In this document: positions 838 to 13,606 of the stretch, piece after piece
Layout: each line of letters begins with the position of its first letter
How positions within the stretch are numbered: position 1 is the first letter of the stretch
Source: Candidatus Saccharimonadota bacterium
GTDB taxonomy: Bacteria > Patescibacteriota > Gracilibacteria > BD1-5 > UBA2023
Assembly (NCBI GenBank): GCA_042852035.1
Contig: BAAFHK010000002.1
Location: 30,001 to 62,000, forward strand
Direction of reading: 5' to 3'
Length of the DNA stretch: 32,000 nucleotides
Program-made: the position numbers and the translations under genes
The notes under the pieces: generated by a model
Databases searched by the model: none
What the model was told of the DNA's origin: nothing
Seen by the model: only the letters and a program-made list of their open reading frames with translations

Positions 838-1596
838 ATGAACTTTCAAGAACAACTTCGTTATGATAAACTTCAACTTATGAAGTCAAGACGACAAAAA
901 AGAGCAACTTCAACTGTTCAGGCAACAACAGAAACAACAAAAGTTGCCGTTGAATGACCAAAAACCATAGAAATCGCAGGCAAGAAAATCCTTGCGATGC
1001 CACTTGAAACTATGGCACTCACCCCAGAACAACAAAAGAAGTTTGAAGAAGCAGGTGGTCTTATGAACCCTGCGCCAAAAATAGCAACAGCAGATAAAAA
1101 TCAAGACAAGATGATGTATTGGTCTGAAAGTTTTGAAACACTTCAAGCAGAAATCGACGGAACGCTTTACAAGGGTTTTGACCTCTTCAAAAAAGTTTAT
1201 GAAGCATTCCCAGATATTCGTTCTATGACAAAAGGCGAAGCCACAGAAGCAGGACTTTACCCAACTATTCATTACCGCAACTTTGCCGCTCGCAAATGGA
1301 TGGCAGAGATGAACGGCGGACACCTTGCTACTTTGGATAAGGATTATAATGGCGAACTCCGTGATATCTTTAACGCAGCAGAAGGAAAAACAAACCTTGA
1401 AAAACTCGCTGCTATGGGTCAAGCACCGCTTGGCTGACGTTATGCTAATGATGCGAAGGTGTATTACTTGGGGGATTGGGCGGGATTGGGTTCTGGCTCG
1501 CTCAATGGTGATGGTGATGTCCGCGTGTTGGGCGCGCACCGTGATAAGGTCGGGCGCTGACAATTACTGATATTGGCAGGGGAGCGCTGTCAGTAG
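838..1596 (+). CDS. DGR variable (target) protein, C-terminal VR. Start may be 838, 880 or 997; the C-terminal frame is uncertain because of a 1-nt indel in the VR.
   Basis: Frame open from ATG 838 with UGA(Gly) at 955, 1435 and 1558. WMAEMNGGHLATLDKDYNGELRDIF resembles a C-type-lectin/DUF1566-like scaffold. The last ~55 codons are the VR. Confidence 0.75.
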
Positions 1597-1610
1597 TGTC
1601 GTTGTATTGG
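1429..1610 (+). repeat. DGR variable repeat (VR)
   Basis: 182 nt matching TR 2248-2428. All 15 differing sites are A in TR (11 A->G, 4 A->T). One of them carries an extra T (VR 1549-1550 GT vs TR A2368). Confidence 0.9.
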
Positions 1611-1744
1611 ATAAATAGTCTCTTTGACACTTTGTCTCTTTTGGTTTCAGAAAATCGTATATACAGTTAATTTTGAAGTCTATATAACAGATGGGATATC
1701 CGCTTTATGCGGATTTTTCTGTATTTCTTCATTTCAAAAACCGT

Positions 1745-2098
1745 ATGGCTACTTATGACCTTCTTCCTGTATATAAGACAACCTATGATTTTCTATTACA
1801 GACTTTTCAATTTTCAAAAACATTTACCCGTGAATACAAATACACTATCTGACAAGAACTCAAAAATGAAACCATACGACTCATACTGGCAATATATCGT
1901 GCCAATGGATCACAAGCAAAAAGATATGAACTCCTTGATGATGCTCGGACAACATTGGAAACCATACGACTTCTTTTGCGTCTGACAAAAGACCTAAAAC
2001 AAATACCACTTTCAGATTTTGTATCACTGAATGAAAAAATAGAAAATATATCAAAACAGTTGGTCGGATGGCAGAAAATATCTGAACGGAAGATATAA
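1745..2098 (+). CDS. avd: accessory variability determinant (Avd-like four-helix-bundle protein), 117 aa, one UGA(Gly) at 1850
   Basis: Translation MATYDLLPVYKTTYDFLLQTF...LLLRLTKDLKQIPLSDFVSLNEKIENISKQLVGWQK has the helical Avd/23S-IVS-protein pattern. It sits between the target gene and TR. Confidence 0.75.
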
Positions 2099-2247
2099 TC
2101 CTAAAAATGTATGCGGGCGAGAATTGTCTATTTTATGGAATGGGCAAGAGTGCCTTTTTTTATCGGAAATTCACTACATTTTTGTAGTATTAAAAGATGG
2201 TGTCCTGGTATTTTTTAGGATACCACAAAAAAGTAATTTCTTTTCCA

Positions 2248-2428
2248 CTTGGCTGACGTAATGCTAATGATGCGAAGGTGTATAACTTGGGGAATTGGGC
2301 GAAATTGGGTTCTGGCTCGCTCAATGGTGATGGTAATGTCCGCGTATTGGACGCGCACCGTGATAAGACGGACGCAGACAATAACTGATATTGACAGAGG
2401 AACGCTGTCAGTAGTGTCGTTGTATTGG
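2248..2428 (+). repeat. DGR template repeat (TR)
   Basis: Invariant, adenine-rich copy of the VR lying 28 nt upstream of the RT start. Its reading frame holds AAT/AAC codons and three TGA codons. It ends in the hairpin TGACAG-N7-CTGTCA. Confidence 0.9.
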
Positions 2429-2456
2429 TTAATAATTGGCATACATTTTTAGGATT

Positions 2457-3635
2457 ATGTTTTTACTTGAAGATATTTTCAGTGCGTATTACGATTGTCG
2501 TAGAAACAAAAGAAATACACTTGGTGCTTTGGAGTTTGAACTTCATTATGAAACCGAGTGTATTCGTTTATTTGATGACATTATTCATAAAAGATATGTG
2601 TTATTACCAAACACTGCTTTTATCGTGCGCGACCCCGTCCAGCGTGAAATACTTGCCAGTCATTTTCGTGACCGTATTATTCACCATCTTATAGCAAGCA
2701 GGCTTGAACCGCACCTTGAAAAACTCCTTATACACGATGTGTATAGTTCCAGAAAAGAAAAATGAACGCACTATGGCATCAAACGAATAGAAAAGTTTAT
2801 GCGCTCGGCATCTGACAACTACCAGCGTGATGCTTATGTTTTGAAACTGGATATTTCAGGTTTCTTTATGGGTATCAATAGGGAACTTTTATTTGGGAAA
2901 ATACAAACCATAATACAAAGATATATGCCACCAGACGAGCAAGATATTCTCCTATATCTCCTTGATATTATCATATTTACAGATGTAAAAAAGAATATTC
3001 GCATTAAGTGAAATAAAACTGACTGGGTATGACTTCCAAAAAGTAAAAGTCTCTTTTATGCCAAACATTGATGTGGTCTGCCTATATGAAACCTGACGAG
3101 CCAGATATTTTCAAATATCTATATGAACGAGTTTGATGTGTTTATCAAAAAGACCTTAAAGATACAGTATTATGGAAGATATGTTGATGATTTTATCCTT
3201 ATCCACCAAGATAAAGAATATCTCAAATCGTGTCTTCCAAAAATACGACAGTATCTCATAGAGCATCTTTGACTGACGCTCCATCCCAAGAAGATATATC
3301 TCCAACCAATAAAAAATGGTGTATTATTCCTTGGAACATATATCAAACCGTGGCGAAAGTATGTGGGAAGACGAACAAAATGAAACTTTTATGAATGTAT
3401 AACTCATATCAATAAAAGATTAAAGAATACTGAACTACTTTCTGATACTGAAAAAAATCGTATTTTGGCACAAATGAACTCATATTTATGATTTTGTAGG
3501 CATTCAAATAGTTATTTATTAAGGAGCAAGATGATATGACTTCTACAACCAAGTTTCTGGGGCTATTTTGATATAGATATTTCATTTATAAAAATCACTA
3601 TCAAACCAAATCCCCAGAAACATATTAAAAAATAG
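2457..3635 (+). CDS. DGR reverse transcriptase, 392 aa, 9 in-frame UGA(Gly)
   Basis: Joins track ORFs 2436..2765 and 2799..3011 with untracked pieces. Motifs: FRDRIIHHL, GLPIGNLTSQIFSNIYMNEFD (the IGxxxSQ signature of DGR RTs) and YGRYVDDFILI (YxDD). Confidence 0.9.
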
Positions 3636-4028: not shown

Positions 4029-4175
4029 AGGGAAGAAGTGGTTAAAAAGTTATAAGTGTGATTGTTTCACATATACCCATAAATTATTTCCAACTTTTTC
4101 TCAAATCTTTTTTGAAAAATGTATCAAAACCTATTACCAGATTAAAAATATATATTTTTATGTAGGAAAACAAAC

Positions 4176-4203
4176 TTGACTTTCGTAATCATTTTCATAT
4201 ATT
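4176..4203 (+). promoter_or_regulatory. candidate promoter TTGACT-N16-TATATT
   Basis: TTGACT at 4176-4181 and TATATT at 4198-4203. The predicted start near 4210 coincides with the 5' end of an acceptor-stem-like helix. Confidence 0.4.
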
Positions 4204-4295
4204 TCGCGCAGTGCTAAAACGGTTTCGACTTTTATTCCTTGAAGAAAAAGTTCTAAGACTAACTTTTTAGCACCGCCATGTTTCAGTATAAAAAA

Positions 4296-4404
4296 GGTGA
4301 TACGGGATGAGAATCTGAGTCCAGAGAAGTGACTGTAGTCACTTCGAAGACGAAGAGAGGCGGCTCGCGGCCGGAGGAGCGAGCGAATCCCCGACCCACC
4401 GCCA
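4296..4404 (+). repeat. structured ~110-nt repeat, copy 1 (candidate ncRNA or miniature integrative element) ending in a tRNA-like ...CGAATCCCCGACCCACCGCCA
   Basis: Shares GGATGAGAATCTGAGT, the hairpin GAAGTGAC-N4-GTCACTTC and a covarying second hairpin with 13003-13115. It is flanked by the direct repeat CACCGCCATGTT[T/C]CAGTA (4271-4288 and 4397-4414). Confidence 0.6.
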
Positions 4405-4526
4405 TGTTCCAGTAGTTACAATGTATAATTTACAAATAATAATGAACAACTTATAGGGTTGTTCATTATACATTGTTTATTCTTCATTATTTTTGGGGGT
4501 ATAGCTCAGTGGTTAGAGCAGTCGGC

Positions 4527-4889
4527 TTAAATAACTTTTTCTAAGTTCAGCTCAGGATAATGTTCTTCTGCATGGCAGTTATGACATAAGAGTATGCATG
4601 ATTGGATTTCTTTCTCGAATGCTTCCTGTGTTCTATTTGATAGAGATCGGACATCGAGCTTAAATACTTTCTTGCTCGGATCGGTATGATGAAATGAGAG
4701 TGCACCAAGATTTTTCTTGTAACCACATCTCATGCATACTCATCCAAACCGCTCAATCAGTTCTTGTTTTCTTTTGAAGCCACGAACTTTCTGAGTCGGG
4801 TAACTCTGATGTTGTTTGTTTTTGCAGAAGATGGAACAAAACAATTTTTGTTTCCCTGACAATGCATTTCAGCATATGACACAGTTCAT
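4527..4889 (-). CDS. HNH homing endonuclease, 120 aa, two UGA(Gly), antisense inside the intron
   Basis: MNCVICGNALSGKQKLFC...GALSFHHTDPSKK...LLCHNCHAEEH carries a zinc-finger-like CxxC and the HH...N...CHNCH motif. Its TAA stop (4527-4529) overlaps the 5' splice junction. Confidence 0.8.
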
Positions 4890-5127
4890 AGCGGAAATAT
4901 AGCAAAATATGAAAAATTTACAAGGGCGGTTATGAGAGCAATCTCATAATGTTTATCTGTCAAATTCGGGGAAACCTTCTTCTTGCAATGAGTGAGAAAT
5001 GGCAATCCCGAGCCAAGTTCGTTCTAGAACGAAAAGGTGTAGAGACTAGACGGCAGACATCCGATTCGGATGAAGGGATAGTCCAGACTTCAAACCCGAA
5101 AGGGGTAGTGAAAACTATGGAAGTAAG
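4528..5127 (+). mobile_element. group I intron (tRNA-type, IC3-like core) in the anticodon loop
   Basis: The 5' exon ends in U and the intron ends in G. Core strings CGGGGAAACC, GGCAATCCCGAGCCAAG, GGTGTAGAGACTAGACGGCAG and GATAGTCCAG match the conserved P3-P8 core of cyanobacterial/proteobacterial tRNA introns (from memory). Confidence 0.8.
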
Positions 5128-5235
5128 CATAACCGATTGGTCGCTGGTTCAAGTCCAGCTACCCCCACCACGTATATTTAAAACCACTCCAAGAGTAATC
5201 TGGGAGTGGTTTTCTTATGTATAATTTTTAAATTC

Positions 5236-6282
5236 TTATTCTCGAAATTCTCGAAAAGTTGGAAATAATCTTGCAAAAAACACTTCAGTTTTTGCCTCCA
5301 TTCGTTTAAAGTAAATTCCTACAAAGATAATTCCTATACCAATTCAAGAAAGAACAAAAGGAAATAGTAAGCTTCATTCAAAAACATTATAGGAAAGATA
5401 GCTAATATAACCGAAAATACCCAGAGCTCCAAAGATAACAAAAGTTCTTCTTAAAACAATCATGCCCAAGATAAGAAATCCGATATTAATCATACAATAA
5501 ATTATTGGTCACCAAAATGTTCCTGAATGCATCATGGATAAGGATCACCAGAATGTTATGGCTCAAAACAAAGCGATCCAAAATCAGAAATCAGGCCTTC
5601 TCTTATTATAGATATCTATAACCAAACTTCCAATAATCATAAGTATTCCAAATACAAATGATATATTTCTTTTTGTCTCGTATCCTGAGCTATAAGAGTC
5701 ATATAAAACATCTCGAAAAAGATAATCTCAGATATCCATACTCATATACCAAAGCGTAAGCGCAACGGGCATGAGCATAAAAGGATATCTGTAACGAGAA
5801 AATGCGAAACAGGCTCAAATAAGTGTTCATACTTCCATCATAAGCCATTTTCCATCGATATAAACATGATAAGAATGATAACTTGTTGGTGCGTACCATA
5901 AGCCCATTAACTTTTGTATAGTGTAGATTACAAGTGGAATGAGTGCAATGCCCATTGTTGCAAAGATTCATGCAGGAATTATATATCATCGTTTCTTTAG
6001 GGAATCAGCTAATCCGAATGCCACGAATAAATAGAGAGTTGCGATAATGAATCATGCCAAATCACCGAAAGATTCCCAAGCCATCCCCAGAAAAAATGAC
6101 ATAGCACCAATGGCGATTCATCCTCCCAAATAGTAAAGAATATTTATAAATGAGAATTTTGCAGTGCGTATATCGGGTACTGTATTCAAGAAGTTCCAAA
6201 GCAAAGAAACTTGAGTTGTTGAAATAATTCCTTGATTTGCAGCATTCTCGAGATCAGATTGAGCGATTTTTATTGTTTCCAT
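5236..6282 (-). CDS. multi-pass integral membrane protein, 348 aa, 13 in-frame UGA(Gly)
   Basis: Continuous minus-strand frame from ATG 6282 to TAA 5236. It has repeated hydrophobic segments with UGA at Gly-like positions. Only a 96-aa piece appears in the standard-code track. Confidence 0.7.
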
Positions 6283-6876: not shown

Positions 6877-8351
<1,475 letters not shown>

Positions 8352-8675: not shown

Positions 8676-11772
<3,097 letters not shown>

Positions 11773-11962
11773 ATATGCTTTTTATTCTTACTCGAACATT
11801 GGTTCGTTGGTATGAATAGAAACTTGAAACATATAATGGAAACGCTCGCAATGTCATCGTACTGTATGCAAAGAAAATATCTTTCATACAGAGAAGTAAA
11901 TAGAACATTCAATCTTAATTCAAGTGGGGAAAATTGTAAATAAACCAAATTTCTCCTCAAAG

Positions 11963-12295: not shown

Positions 12296-12400
12296 TGGTT
12301 CCCTTTCGACTTCTTCCTGATACTTCGATCCTCTTTTTAAAATCCTTTGATTTTTTGAAACACTTCGATTATCTGTGAAGTATACTGGAATCTTTTCCTT

Positions 12401-12477
12401 GGATCATTAGCTCAGTTGGTTAGAGCGCTTGCTCGACATGCAAGAGGTCACTAGTTCGAGTCTAGTATGATCCACCA
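12401..12477 (+). tRNA. tRNA-Val(GAC) with an atypical C at position 33, CCA encoded
   Basis: Cloverleaf GGATCAT..GCTCAGTTGGTTAGAGC G CTTGC TCGACAT GCAAG AGGTC ACTAG TTCGAGT CTAGT ATGATCC A CCA. Confidence 0.75.
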
Positions 12478-12875
12478 GAGAAACTCCAATAAAAATAAAA
12501 AACAGTGGAAAAGAGGAAGAAAAACTCAAACAGAGTGGGAAAAAAGAAGAAATGTAGAAAAGAATACAGAAAAAGAATAAGACAAAAACATAAGAAAAAG
12601 TGGAAAAACAAAATATTTCCATATACTCTCTCTGAAACCGTCTTCGAAGAAACAGTCTTCAAACAAAACTATTCTTCCTCAGAAATGGAAATATTCTTTC
12701 TAAGAATCTAAAACATTCTTCCCAAGTTTTTTCTCGAAGTCTCTGTCTCAAATTCTTTCCCCAACACTTCCCAAATTCCCCAGATTCTTCCCAAATCTCT
12801 TCTTGAATTCATTTTTTCCAATCCGTTCCCCTCTTTCTCATTCCGTCTCAGTGGTTCCATCATCTCAATATTCAT

Positions 12876-12951
12876 GGGCAATTAGTTCAGTGGTGAGAAC
12901 ACCTGCCTTACAAGCAGGGGGTCATAGGTTCGAATCCTATATTGCCCACCA
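12876..12951 (+). tRNA. tRNA-Val(UAC), CCA encoded
   Basis: Cloverleaf with anticodon loop CTTACAA and T arm ATAGG TTCGAAT CCTAT. Confidence 0.88.
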
Positions 12952-13002
12952 TGAAAAAACCAGAAAACTCGTTCGTAAGAATGGGTTTTTTATTTTTTTG
13001 TT

Positions 13003-13115
13003 GCAAAGAATATAGGATGAGAATCTGAGTGGTTTACGAGAAGTGACCGATGTCACTTCGAGAGCGAGGAGAGACGAGTGCGTCGGAGAGCACTCGAATC
13101 CTCTATTGCCCACCA
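13003..13115 (+). repeat. structured ~110-nt repeat, copy 2, ending in a duplicate of the tRNA-Val(UAC) 3' end
   Basis: Same core as 4296-4404. TCGAATCCT[A/C]TATTGCCCACCATGAAAAA occurs at 12930-12958 and 13094-13122 (28/29 identical). Confidence 0.6.
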
Positions 13116-13132
13116 TGAAAAATAAAAGAAAA

Positions 13133-13165
13133 ATCCCTCTTTCCGAAAGGAAGGGGGATTTTTAT
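13133..13165. terminator. bidirectional terminator hairpin (CCCTCTTTCC GAAA GGAAGGGGG + T-run)
   Basis: Lies between repeat copy 2 (+) and the minus-strand CDS ending at 13166. A near-identical motif is at 6446-6480. Confidence 0.55.
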
Positions 13166-13606
13166 CTAGAAGTGGGGAGGGGCTAGCTTTTCTCACTTAC
13201 GTTCCCTTTCTTCTTCTGCTCGTATTTTTTGAACATAATCATGATTTATATTTTCTTTTAAGATTGCATTTCTTTCGGCATCATGAAGACGGATTTGTGT
13301 ATATGCATCTCGAAGGCTTATTTCTCCTCGAATTCCTCTTCATGCAATATCATTATATTGTTCAATTACGCTGCTATATATTGGCTTCATATTGAGTAGC
13401 TCCCCAGTTATATTTCTATTTCTCAAGTCTTCGATAGTACTGATTAATAGATGTCTCCAATATTCATGATTTGAGTCTTCATCAGGATTTTTCCCATCAA
13501 CATAATAATTTTCGGGAATCCGATCTTCTATTTGTTGAAGAGCTCCTTGTTTTGCATAATCTTTTGTATAGAGTTCTCCTAAAATTTTAGGTACTTCTTT
13601 TTCCAT
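13166..13606 (-). CDS. hypothetical protein, 146 aa, two UGA(Gly)
   Basis: Track ORF 13340..13606 continues through TGA to TAG at 13166-13168. Confidence 0.55.

Follow-up and report, generated by a model that had tools for sequence, protein, structure and literature searches.

A family of structured RNA elements beside tRNA genes in Gracilibacteria that may imitate the top half of tRNA

Two copies of a structured element

The stretch of DNA analysed here (the window, 32,000 nucleotides) encodes an EF-Tu that is 87–96% identical to Candidatus Gracilibacteria proteins. Its open reading frames are short under code 11, but long once UGA is a sense codon. The window contains two copies of a structured RNA element, both on the forward strand. 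The first, c1 (4294–4404), is of type A and was delimited with a covariance model and by its fold. The second, c2 (13004–13115), represents a third subtype and was delimited by its covariance-model score and sequence. An earlier note, made from the sequence alone, had placed two copies here, and three kinds of search confirm it. The 16-mer GGATGAGAATCTGAGT occurs exactly twice in the window (at 4305 and 13015), and the hairpin GAAGTGAC-N4-GTCACTTCGA lies at 4326 and 13040 (0.04 occurrences expected from shuffles). Moreover, the covariance model of the family, run with filters off, matches these two places alone in the window, with 104 bits for c1 (E about 1e-25 to 1e-27) and 87–92 bits for c2. 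Both copies fold more stably than their shuffles (z-scores of −3.2 for c1 and −2.7 for c2), and the minimum free energy of c1 is −41.3 kcal/mol. In agreement with the earlier suggestion that the element belongs to no Rfam family, Rfam 15 has no family over c1 or c2 at the gathering threshold in the whole window, nor over c1 at E≤10 (region 4100–5400). We also found no paper describing this RNA family.

The c1 copy has a diversity-generating retroelement on one side and an intron-containing tRNA-Met gene, which starts 93 nt later, on the other; an rRNA operon lies downstream. The copy begins with a 5′ arm (4296–4308), identified from sequence, fold and pair counts of helix 1. The arm contributes to a closing helix resembling the acceptor stem and T stem of tRNA (GGTG 4296–4299 with CACC 4397–4400, and CGGG 4303–4306 with CCCG 4390–4393). 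The alignments then place a junction, J1 (ATGAGAATCTGA, 4307–4318), whose pentamer TGAGA is T-loop-like. At the same position, the copies that we call type B have a true T loop, TTCGAAT, and we infer from these sequences that the c1 pentamer may form a T-loop motif as well. Sequence and covariation define the next part (4319–4351), which consists of the short helix P3 (GTC 4319–4321 with GAC 4349–4351) and the hairpin H1 (GAAGTGAC 4326–4333 with GTCACTTC 4338–4345, loop TGTA). A purine-rich linker, J2, and an H-type pseudoknot follow (4352–4384), supported by covariation. The pseudoknot consists of S1 (GGC 4359–4361 with GCC 4370–4372), H2 (GCTCGC 4363–4368 with GCGAGC 4379–4384) and the loop L3 (GGAGGA 4373–4378). 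The sequence ends like a tRNA (GAATCCCCGACCCACCGCCA, 4385–4404, resembling tRNA-Ser with anticodon GCU), in the order 3′ part of the T loop, 3′ strand of the T stem, 3′ strand of the acceptor stem, discriminator G and CCA. Copies orthologous to c1 occur in two related contigs, L003 and L010, and there the corresponding end is the 3′ end of the adjoining tRNA-Ser(GCT).

An 18-nt direct repeat is associated with c1, and its reported identity of 17/18 was reproduced. Its left copy (CACCGCCATGTTTCAGTA, 4271–4288) comprises the last 8 nt of a tRNA and a 10-nt trailer, and its right copy lies at 4397–4414. The first 16 nt of the left copy are identical to the end of the L010 element plus its trailer. 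The earlier note had likened this pair to the attL and attR sites around a tRNA-targeting integrative element. In the family, direct repeats of a tRNA 3′ end do bound the unit, and relatives have precise empty sites. At c1, however, the likeness fails: the left repeat has no tRNA body and retains only the last 8–12 nt of a tRNA and the trailer, joined to an A+T-rich hairpin. Therefore, the c1 repeats are not a clean attL/attR pair. ARAGORN found no tRNA upstream of c1, either by default or in a relaxed run on the forward strand. Where relatives have tRNA-Ser(GCT), the window has a sigma-70-like promoter sequence (TTGACT-16-TATATT, 4176–4203) and the A+T-rich hairpin (about 4209–4279), which together span 4176–4279 on the forward strand. 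The stem ends of this hairpin resemble the acceptor stem of tRNA-Asp. Synteny with L003 and L010 suggests that the left repeat marks the expected end of tRNA-Ser(GCT). We infer that the left side of c1 is either a rearrangement or the right end of a retroelement-carrying island inserted at the 3′ end of tRNA-Ser.

The c2 copy is in a tRNA cluster after 5S rRNA. Its partner, a tRNA-Val(TAC) gene detected by ARAGORN and Rfam (12876–12951, forward strand), ends 52 nt before it. The gap (12952–13002) holds the trailer and a terminator-like hairpin (12962–12991), and is the left part of a 164-bp repeat unit. The parts of c2 are a 5′ arm (GCAA 13003–13006 and ATATAGG 13010–13016), J1 (13017–13028), P3 (GT 13029–13030 with GC 13064–13065), H1 (13040–13047 with 13052–13059), S1 (GAC 13073–13075 with GTC 13082–13084), H2 (GAGTGC 13076–13081 with GCACTC 13090–13095), L3 (GGAGA 13085–13089) and the 3′ end (GAATCCTCTATTGCCCACCA, 13096–13115). 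A 29-nt direct repeat surrounds c2 (12930–12958 and 13094–13122, 28/29 identical); its right copy runs from the tRNA-Val T loop through CCA and then for another 7 nt (TGAAAAA). The last 22 nt of c2 match tRNA-Val from T loop to CCA with one mismatch. An intrinsic-terminator-like hairpin follows c2 at 13136–13157. In six relatives whose EF-Tu is 93–96% identical to that of the window (L013–L016, L040 and L042), no cassette was detected after tRNA-Val(TAC), and a terminator stands there instead. The c2 cassette is therefore a lineage-specific gain, both of whose arms match the new tRNA.

Further copies at tRNA-Ser loci

The element is not confined to the two copies of the window: there are 12 more beyond it, always adjoining tRNA genes. 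This brings the family to 14 copies in nine loci, all in Gracilibacteria, with the additional copies lying in seven other contigs. Pattern scans revealed true copies in three contigs, L003 from a Gracilibacteria MAG and L010 and L011 from metagenomes. The five pattern matches in IMG/VR and nine of 12 in genomes and metagenomes are chance occurrences in coding DNA. Using as bait the ribosomal protein L25, whose gene neighbors the tRNA-Ser in L011, plus the family covariance model, we found copies in L022, L026, L027, L033 and L038. Family members score 43–115 bits, versus at most 16 bits for the rest of about 290 kb of related Gracilibacteria DNA. The weak matches are tRNA-Ser genes, which share the ends of the element.

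All copies outside the window are at tRNA-Ser(GCT) loci, where each follows either the tRNA itself directly or, within a tandem array, a preceding copy. Among those with a tRNA-type end, the partner is the tRNA-Ser with anticodon GCU in nine of ten cases; that of c2 is the tRNA-Val with anticodon UAC. In L003 and L010, the order is tRNA-Ser, 13–15 nt, the element, 22–82 nt and tRNA-Met, so that the element occupies a tRNA slot in a tRNA operon. Terminators stand after the element or the array. The copies fall into at least four lineages: type A (c1, L003, L010 and L011), types A2/A3 (L022, L038A, L026A, L027A and L033A), type B (L026B, L027B and L038B) and c2. The earlier note mentions neither the pseudoknot nor the retained T-loop motif, and it has nothing on tandem arrays or on the setting in a tRNA operon (tRNA-Ser, element, tRNA-Met).

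RNA architecture and covariation

The element is about 110 nt long, and the cassette unit about 125–165 bp. The T stem of a tRNA, together with the whole acceptor stem or a part of it, forms the closing helix of the element, and an insert of about 75 nt is located within the "T loop". This insert begins with a pentamer resembling a T loop; a variable hairpin, whose internal loop is rich in G and A, comes next, and after it a linker rich in purines and a compact H-type pseudoknot. From 5′ to 3′, the element thus consists of the arm, the T-loop-like segment, P3, the G/A-rich internal loop, H1, the purine-rich linker, H2 and the 3′ end. The 5′ arm corresponds to part or all of the partner tRNA's acceptor 5′ strand followed by its T-stem 5′ strand. 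The 3′ portion contains GAAT or GAAC, the 3′ strands of the T stem and acceptor stem, the discriminator and CCA. Given this anatomy, the insert lies between T-arm positions 60 and 61, with GAAT flanking both sides. The proposal that each copy ends in the portion of a tRNA from T loop to CCA is accordingly supported, and most copies repeat the last ~21 nt of the adjacent tRNA.

The extent of the closing helix varies. Type A copies of the L026/L027/L033/L038 lineage have a full 12-bp acceptor/T minihelix; in L026A, for instance, the arm GG(A)TGAGT-GAGGG forms it with the 3′ end. The type B arm is only GTGAGGG, and type B has a 9-nt 3′ tail. The T-loop-like segment reads TTCGAAT in type B and (A)TGAGAAT in type A, and type B retains GAGGG-TTCGAAT 5′ of the insert. 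Overall, the closing helix (helix 1) is 67% paired: the inner T-stem pairs are kept in 100% of copies, and the acceptor part in about half of them.

Covariation was evaluated in a model-guided alignment of the 14 copies, in which the sequences are fitted to the model, and the pairing frequencies must be read accordingly. H1 is 96% paired, with two-sided changes in seven of its eight pairs, H2 is 98% paired, with such changes in five of six, and the figure for P3 is 92%. The observed covariation was not reached by any of 500 column shuffles, and when the partners are slid by 1–3 columns, pairing is 29–44%. The second pair of H1 documents a stepwise compensation, from A-U (c1) through G-U (L026B) to G-C (L038B). 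The 3-bp helix S1 connects the last bases of the linker with the first bases of the H2 loop. Across the four lineages, its sequences are GGC/GCC, GCC/GGC, GUC/GAC and GAC/GUC, and its middle pair adopts all four Watson-Crick forms; a flush match of this kind is expected by chance in 0.02–0.04 of cases per sequence. S1 and H2 together make up an H-type pseudoknot with a conserved third loop (GGAGGA, GGAGAA, GGAGA or GGUGA; GGRGRA). The compensatory changes in the two hairpins and the pseudoknot argue that the RNA is under selection. In addition, the junction sequences are identical between contigs even though their tRNA-Ser genes differ.

These data support the earlier idea of a structured RNA with a three-way junction. 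The hairpins described there for the window copies hold in the alignment of all 14. Covariation was also claimed for the closing helices (GGGAT/ATCCC versus AGGAT/ATCCT, and GGTG/CACC versus GCAA/TTGC), but in these helices each copy simply has the T-stem and acceptor sequence of its own tRNA, which is Ser-type for c1 and Val for c2. The differences are not independent compensatory mutations.

Duplicated tRNA ends and cassette gain or loss

Nine of the 11 copies that have both an upstream tRNA and a tRNA-type end differ from that tRNA by 0–2 nt in the 3′ end. Those of L003, L010, L026A, L027A, L038A and L038B are identical to it, and those of c2, L026B, L033A and L027B are one or two bases off. 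A duplicated end is seen solely at tRNAs that adjoin an element. Where the end of an element departs from its tRNA, the 5′ arm shows no compensating change (c2 and L027B), so that the identity of the 3′ ends looks driven at the DNA level rather than selected in the RNA. The two copies that do not match are L011 and L022. Their arms match tRNA-Ser, but their own 3′ end, an unrelated tRNA-like sequence (CCAAGACGAACCGCCA), is not complementary to the arm, and no tRNA matching it was found in the related DNA examined.

Copy number varies among close strains from zero to three in tandem, and empty sites are located exactly at the repeated tRNA end. The contigs L033, L034 and L035 encode the same L25 protein (P0127). 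In L034 and L035, the CCA of the tRNA is followed by a terminator, T2, whereas L033 has the tRNA, another terminator (T1), the element and T2; the difference is a 166-bp unit that extends exactly from the CCA of the tRNA to the CCA of the element. Contigs with a second L25 protein (P0124) have either no copy (L023) or two copies of different subtype (L026 and L027). The array in L038 consists of an A copy, a B copy, a second T1 and a degenerate, chimeric A copy (43 bits); the re-duplicated T1 and the chimera are direct evidence for unequal recombination between repeated ends.

Flanking repeats with an intact tRNA at the left are found for c2, L033, L026, L027, L038, L003 and L010, but not for c1. 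Empty sites are seen in L034 and L035 relative to L033 and in the six tRNA-Val loci of the relatives, although a homologous deletion would look alike. The duplicated end makes the gain, loss and stacking of cassettes explicable by ordinary homologous recombination. With duplicated 21-nt ends, plain recombination gives the same pattern of gain and loss as integration.

Imitation of tRNA, mobility or regulation in cis

The covarying helices and pseudoknot, the conserved junctions, the placement in operons, the T-loop motif and the CCA ends suggest that the RNA is functional and mimics the top half of a tRNA. This half is the part of a tRNA that is recognized by RNase P, 3′-end trimming, the CCA-adding enzyme, EF-Tu and class II synthetases. 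Our preferred reading is that the element is such a mimic, embedded in tRNA operons, that tRNA-processing enzymes would excise it, and that cassettes would come and go through recombination at the duplicated tRNA end. Going by comparison of sequences, we consider this combined reading about equally likely to be right or wrong. The element RNA would be transcribed together with a tRNA, or in the manner of one. The tRNA-processing machinery would cut it out, with RNase P acting at the 5′ side of the minihelix and the 3′ end being trimmed to the CCA; excision in the manner of a tRNA is probable. The released RNA could persist as a stable, non-decoding mimic of tRNA, and the conserved insert would be its working part, a platform that binds a protein, a ligand or another RNA. 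At the DNA level, the copy of ~21 bp of the tRNA 3′ end at the right end of the cassette forms a direct repeat with the tRNA gene's own end, and recombination between the two would delete, duplicate or stack cassettes. Such recombination would account for the attL/attR-like appearance, the tandem arrays and the presence or absence between strains.

Against this reading stand the acceptor part of the closing helix, which is ill-paired in about half of the copies, the 9-nt 3′ tail of type B, the ends of L011 and L022, which are not complementary to their arms, and the differences between element ends and tRNAs that the arms do not compensate. Moreover, a patchy distribution with variable copy number is unusual for a housekeeping RNA, and plain recombination does not explain how c2 acquired two arms that match tRNA-Val.

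One alternative is rather unlikely, though not negligible. The element could be a non-autonomous micro-integrative element, akin to a CIME as the earlier note had proposed, whose recombinase is encoded elsewhere and whose attP-like site extends from T loop to CCA. The cassette would bring a replacement tRNA 3′ end and a terminator and shift the original end to its right border, successive integrations would build the arrays, and the RNA fold would serve the element itself, e.g. in recognition or guiding by the target-complementary 5′ arm. One class of tRNA-targeting tyrosine integrases reportedly uses a sublocation that starts at the T loop, and the direct repeats here begin in the T loop and extend through CCA. 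The precise empty and filled pair of L034 and L033, the accretion-like stacking of different subtypes (A, then B) at one tRNA and the patchy distribution also fit integration. So do the lineage-specific gain of c2 at a new tRNA, with both arms matching, and the 5′ arms of L011 and L022, which still fit the upstream tRNA-Ser and not their own 3′ end. However, ORF maps, gene tables and a Pfam search of seven window proteins revealed no integrase or transposase gene near any copy. The sole enzyme-like matches among these seven proteins, which are encoded in the c1 region and beside c2, are the reverse transcriptase/Avd pair of the retroelement. The crossover flank (GAGCAC|TCGAAT) has no symmetric T-stem half-site, which would be expected for such integrases, terminal inverted repeats are absent, and the phage, plasmid and IMG/VR collections have no true matches. 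The unit measures only 126–166 bp; to our knowledge, all known integrative elements are far larger. Finally, homologous recombination between the 21-nt repeats would yield the same pattern.

Still less likely is a new kind of retargetable micro-mobile element that has no recombinase of its own. Its RNA or DNA arm would guide it to the 3′ strand of the T stem and acceptor stem of a chosen tRNA gene. Insertion in the T loop, by a trans-acting enzyme or mediated by RNA, would regenerate the tRNA, the displaced end would become the CCA end of the element, and a change of arm would retarget it, as from tRNA-Ser to tRNA-Val.

We regard it as very unlikely that the element is a cis-acting 3′ extension of the tRNA transcript. 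In that case the arm, being complementary to the last ~12 nt of the upstream tRNA, would bind the 3′ strand of this tRNA, either within the precursor or in trans, and would thereby tune how tRNA-Ser and tRNA-Val are matured or charged, or their CCA status. Complementarity to the upstream tRNA is perfect in L011, L022, L026–L038 and c2, the c2 arm pairs better with tRNA-Val (9/9) than with its own end (8/9), and the element is always immediately 3′ of a tRNA. By contrast, a terminator-like hairpin separates the two in most loci, c1 is intact with its own promoter-like site and no upstream tRNA, and the arms of L003, L010 and c1 are weakly complementary. Unfolding a mature acceptor/T helix would also seem energetically implausible.

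The least probable reading, which we disfavor, takes the copies for functionless, decaying by-products of tRNA gene duplication or rearrangement, as their tRNA-derived ends, variable copy number, degenerate (third copy of L038, 43 bits) and chimeric (L011 and L022) members and 3′ ends that follow the tRNA rather than the 5′ arm might suggest, but it conflicts with how strongly H1, H2, P3 and the pseudoknot covary through compensatory changes, with junction sequences that are unchanged between contigs with differing tRNA-Ser genes and with an insert that has no significant likeness to tRNA-Ser 1–48 (p = 0.08–0.99).

If the RNA is indeed processed and CCA-ended, as the preferred top-half mimic would be, it would amount to a naturally occurring "tRNA scaffold", and, in hosts with minimal genomes and recoded UGA, would be a candidate for a decoy, a donor or a regulator of enzymes that bind tRNA. 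If it is instead mobile, no smaller element that targets tRNA genes would be known, and a new mechanism of targeting could be involved. Either way, the duplicated ends make tRNA loci prone to local genome plasticity and to mis-annotation.

Relation to known RNAs and elements

The family appears to be previously undescribed, and in principle resembles the tRNA-like domains of tmRNA, YrlA and viral tRNA-like structures. What sets it apart is that the T loop holds the insert, that the ends are borrowed from the adjoining tRNA gene and that it behaves as a variable cassette. The design is unusual: within the top half of a tRNA, the T loop accommodates a conserved module with a pseudoknot, and a neighboring tRNA provides the ends. 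With this family, the Candidate Phyla Radiation, for which, as far as we know, very few non-coding RNAs have been described, gains a class of structured RNA.

Like the tRNA-like domain of tmRNA, including two-piece tmRNA, the element is non-decoding, its ends form an acceptor/T-arm mimic with CCA, and its body has a pseudoknot. tmRNA is matured by tRNA-processing enzymes, and the element may share this property. However, the T arm of tmRNA is contiguous and its body lies between the acceptor 5′ strand and the T arm, whereas the insert of the element is inside the T loop. Also unlike tmRNA, the element has neither a tag reading frame nor G3-U70, and its ends copy the adjoining tRNA.

In the bacterial Y-RNA-like YrlA, viral tRNA-like structures and mascRNA-type RNAs, tRNA mimicry modules recognized by tRNA enzymes are grafted onto another RNA (PMC4201824; PMC7749636). 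These share the use of a T arm and acceptor-like stem as a module, but they have their own fixed sequences, not tied to a neighboring tRNA gene, and none has a T-loop insert with a hairpin-plus-pseudoknot core.

tRNA-targeting integrative elements and their integrase-less derivatives (CIMEs) are similar to the cassettes in their empty sites, their tandem accretion and their tRNA 3′ repeats, which begin in the T loop, and also, c1 excepted, in leaving an intact tRNA at the left. They differ in that the cassette is 126–166 bp long, has no recombinase that we could see, contains a single RNA under RNA-level selection and has a 5′ arm complementary to the displaced tRNA end. The sRNAs derived from 3′ external transcribed spacers (e.g. 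3′ETS-leuZ) are likewise encoded directly downstream of a tRNA and presumably freed by tRNA processing. These are unstructured spacers without tRNA-like ends, whereas the element is a separate and highly structured RNA that has a CCA end of its own and, in many cases, a terminator too.

Other identities considered

The element is not a tRNA cloverleaf. ARAGORN calls six tRNAs in the window, none of them at 4294–4404 or 13004–13115, the relaxed run is empty on the forward strand, and no RF00005 match overlaps c1 even at E≤10. There is no anticodon, since the H1 loops are not conserved. What the ends do contain is the T stem, acceptor 3′ strand, discriminator and CCA of a tRNA. tmRNA was rejected because neither ARAGORN nor Rfam calls one; the sole weak tmRNA match in the region (5102–5170) is on the 3′ exon of tRNA-Met. 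Motifs such as CUGA...GAA and the GGAGG loops brought to mind hammerhead, HDV-like, pistol and hatchet ribozymes, SRP RNA, 6S RNA and RNase P fragments, but Rfam has no match over c1 at E≤10 and the supposedly diagnostic bases vary in types A2 and B. As for a rearranged tRNA-Ser (positions 1–48), the 8–11-mers AGAGGCGGGT and AGTCGCCG are suggestive, but local alignment compared with shuffles gave the p-values quoted above and does not support this origin, so that mere decay of a tRNA would not account for the insert.

A phage or plasmid origin was rejected, as INPHARED, PLSDB and IMG/VR (phage, plasmid and viral collections) contain no true match. A MITE or IS-derived element was rejected because no terminal inverted repeats were found. 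The inverted repeats that do occur are the internal hairpins, a terminator-like hairpin upstream of c2 (12954–12999) and an A/T run flanking c2; the GAAT(C) that flanks the insert on either side belongs to the T loop. We see no link to the reverse transcriptase (2457–3635), which is part of the diversity-generating retroelement with Avd and TR/VR and is absent from all other element loci. An anti-Shine-Dalgarno sponge was discarded, given that the 3′ end of the host 16S rRNA has no CCUCC and the genes have no Shine-Dalgarno sequences. Lastly, a small peptide starting after the CCA (CC-AUG...) was considered, but CCATG follows five of seven tRNA genes in the window, the intron-split tRNA-Met included, and is thus unspecific.

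Surroundings of copy 2

Copy 2 (13004-13115), one of two window members of the cassette family, lies between tRNA-Val(TAC) (12876-12951) and an FtsX-like gene. Insertions are locally concentrated in this slot, and its small orphan genes differ among relatives. The window has a 146-aa gene there (13166-13606, minus strand), whose protein has no match in Pfam. In L015, one of six relatives that have the tRNA-Val(TAC) locus without copy 2, the same slot has an ORF of about 117 aa (about 7690-8043, minus strand; read by eye from the sequence) that looks unrelated to the 146-aa gene. Two others, L013 and L016, have no orphan gene in this slot.

Upstream, the spacers separating tRNA-Arg, tRNA-Val(GAC) and tRNA-Val(TAC), within 12296-12875, are 105 and 398 nt long in the window and 1-30 nt in six relatives. 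In the 398-nt spacer, which contains short internal repeats, purines dominate the first half (12490-12620) and pyrimidines the second (12700-12870). This spacer may have arisen as a further lineage-specific insertion, or it may act as a long stem for processing. Copy 2 itself is flanked by a perfect 10-nt inverted repeat, TTTTATTTTT (12988-12997) and AAAAATAAAA (13118-13127). Because this repeat is of low complexity, it may be due to chance or may form a flanking processing stem.

Surroundings of copy 1

Just 5′ of copy 1 (4294-4404), where relatives have tRNA-Ser(GCT), is an A+T-rich hairpin (4209-4279), preceded by the region's best sigma-70-like promoter. The hairpin has a terminal stem, (A)GTGCTAA...TTAGCACC-G-CCA, that reproduces the tRNA-Asp acceptor stem and 3′ end seen in relatives (13-nt match). 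The hairpin was not recognised as a tRNA.

Downstream, a CAU-anticodon tRNA of the Met type (4498-5170) carries a group I intron of 597 nt (4531-5127) that separates positions 33 and 34 and within which the Rfam match to this intron class spans 4909-5108. The orthologous tRNA-Met genes in L003 and L010, two Gracilibacteria contigs with copies orthologous to copy 1, have no intron. The intron region also contains a 120-aa Cys/His-rich ORF (4527-4889) on the strand opposite to the tRNA. This ORF includes an in-frame UGA and has HNH-endonuclease-like CxxC...HNCH motifs, and Pfam gave no match for it.

Other features of the window

UGA is a sense codon in this organism: the ORFs of the whole window add up to 3.6k aa when read with code 11 and to 13.4k aa with code 25. 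The 3′ end of the 16S rRNA is GGAUGGACUAUCUCUUUA, in which the anti-Shine-Dalgarno CCUCC is absent, and throughout the window the tracts 5′ of start codons are pyrimidine-rich, not purine-rich.

The 23S rRNA gene (8676-11774) has 3099 nt, versus 2925 positions in the model; one or more insertions can be seen, including one around 8940-9000.

A diversity-generating retroelement occupies 838-3635. It comprises a target gene (838-1596) with a C-terminal variable region (VR; ...GGRYANDAKVYYLGDWAGLGSGSLNGDGDVRVLGAHRDK), a bAvd-like gene (1691-2098), a template repeat (about 2230-2400) and a reverse transcriptase with a YVDD motif (2457-3635). At the sites where it differs from the VR, the template repeat has Asn/Lys/Asp/Thr.
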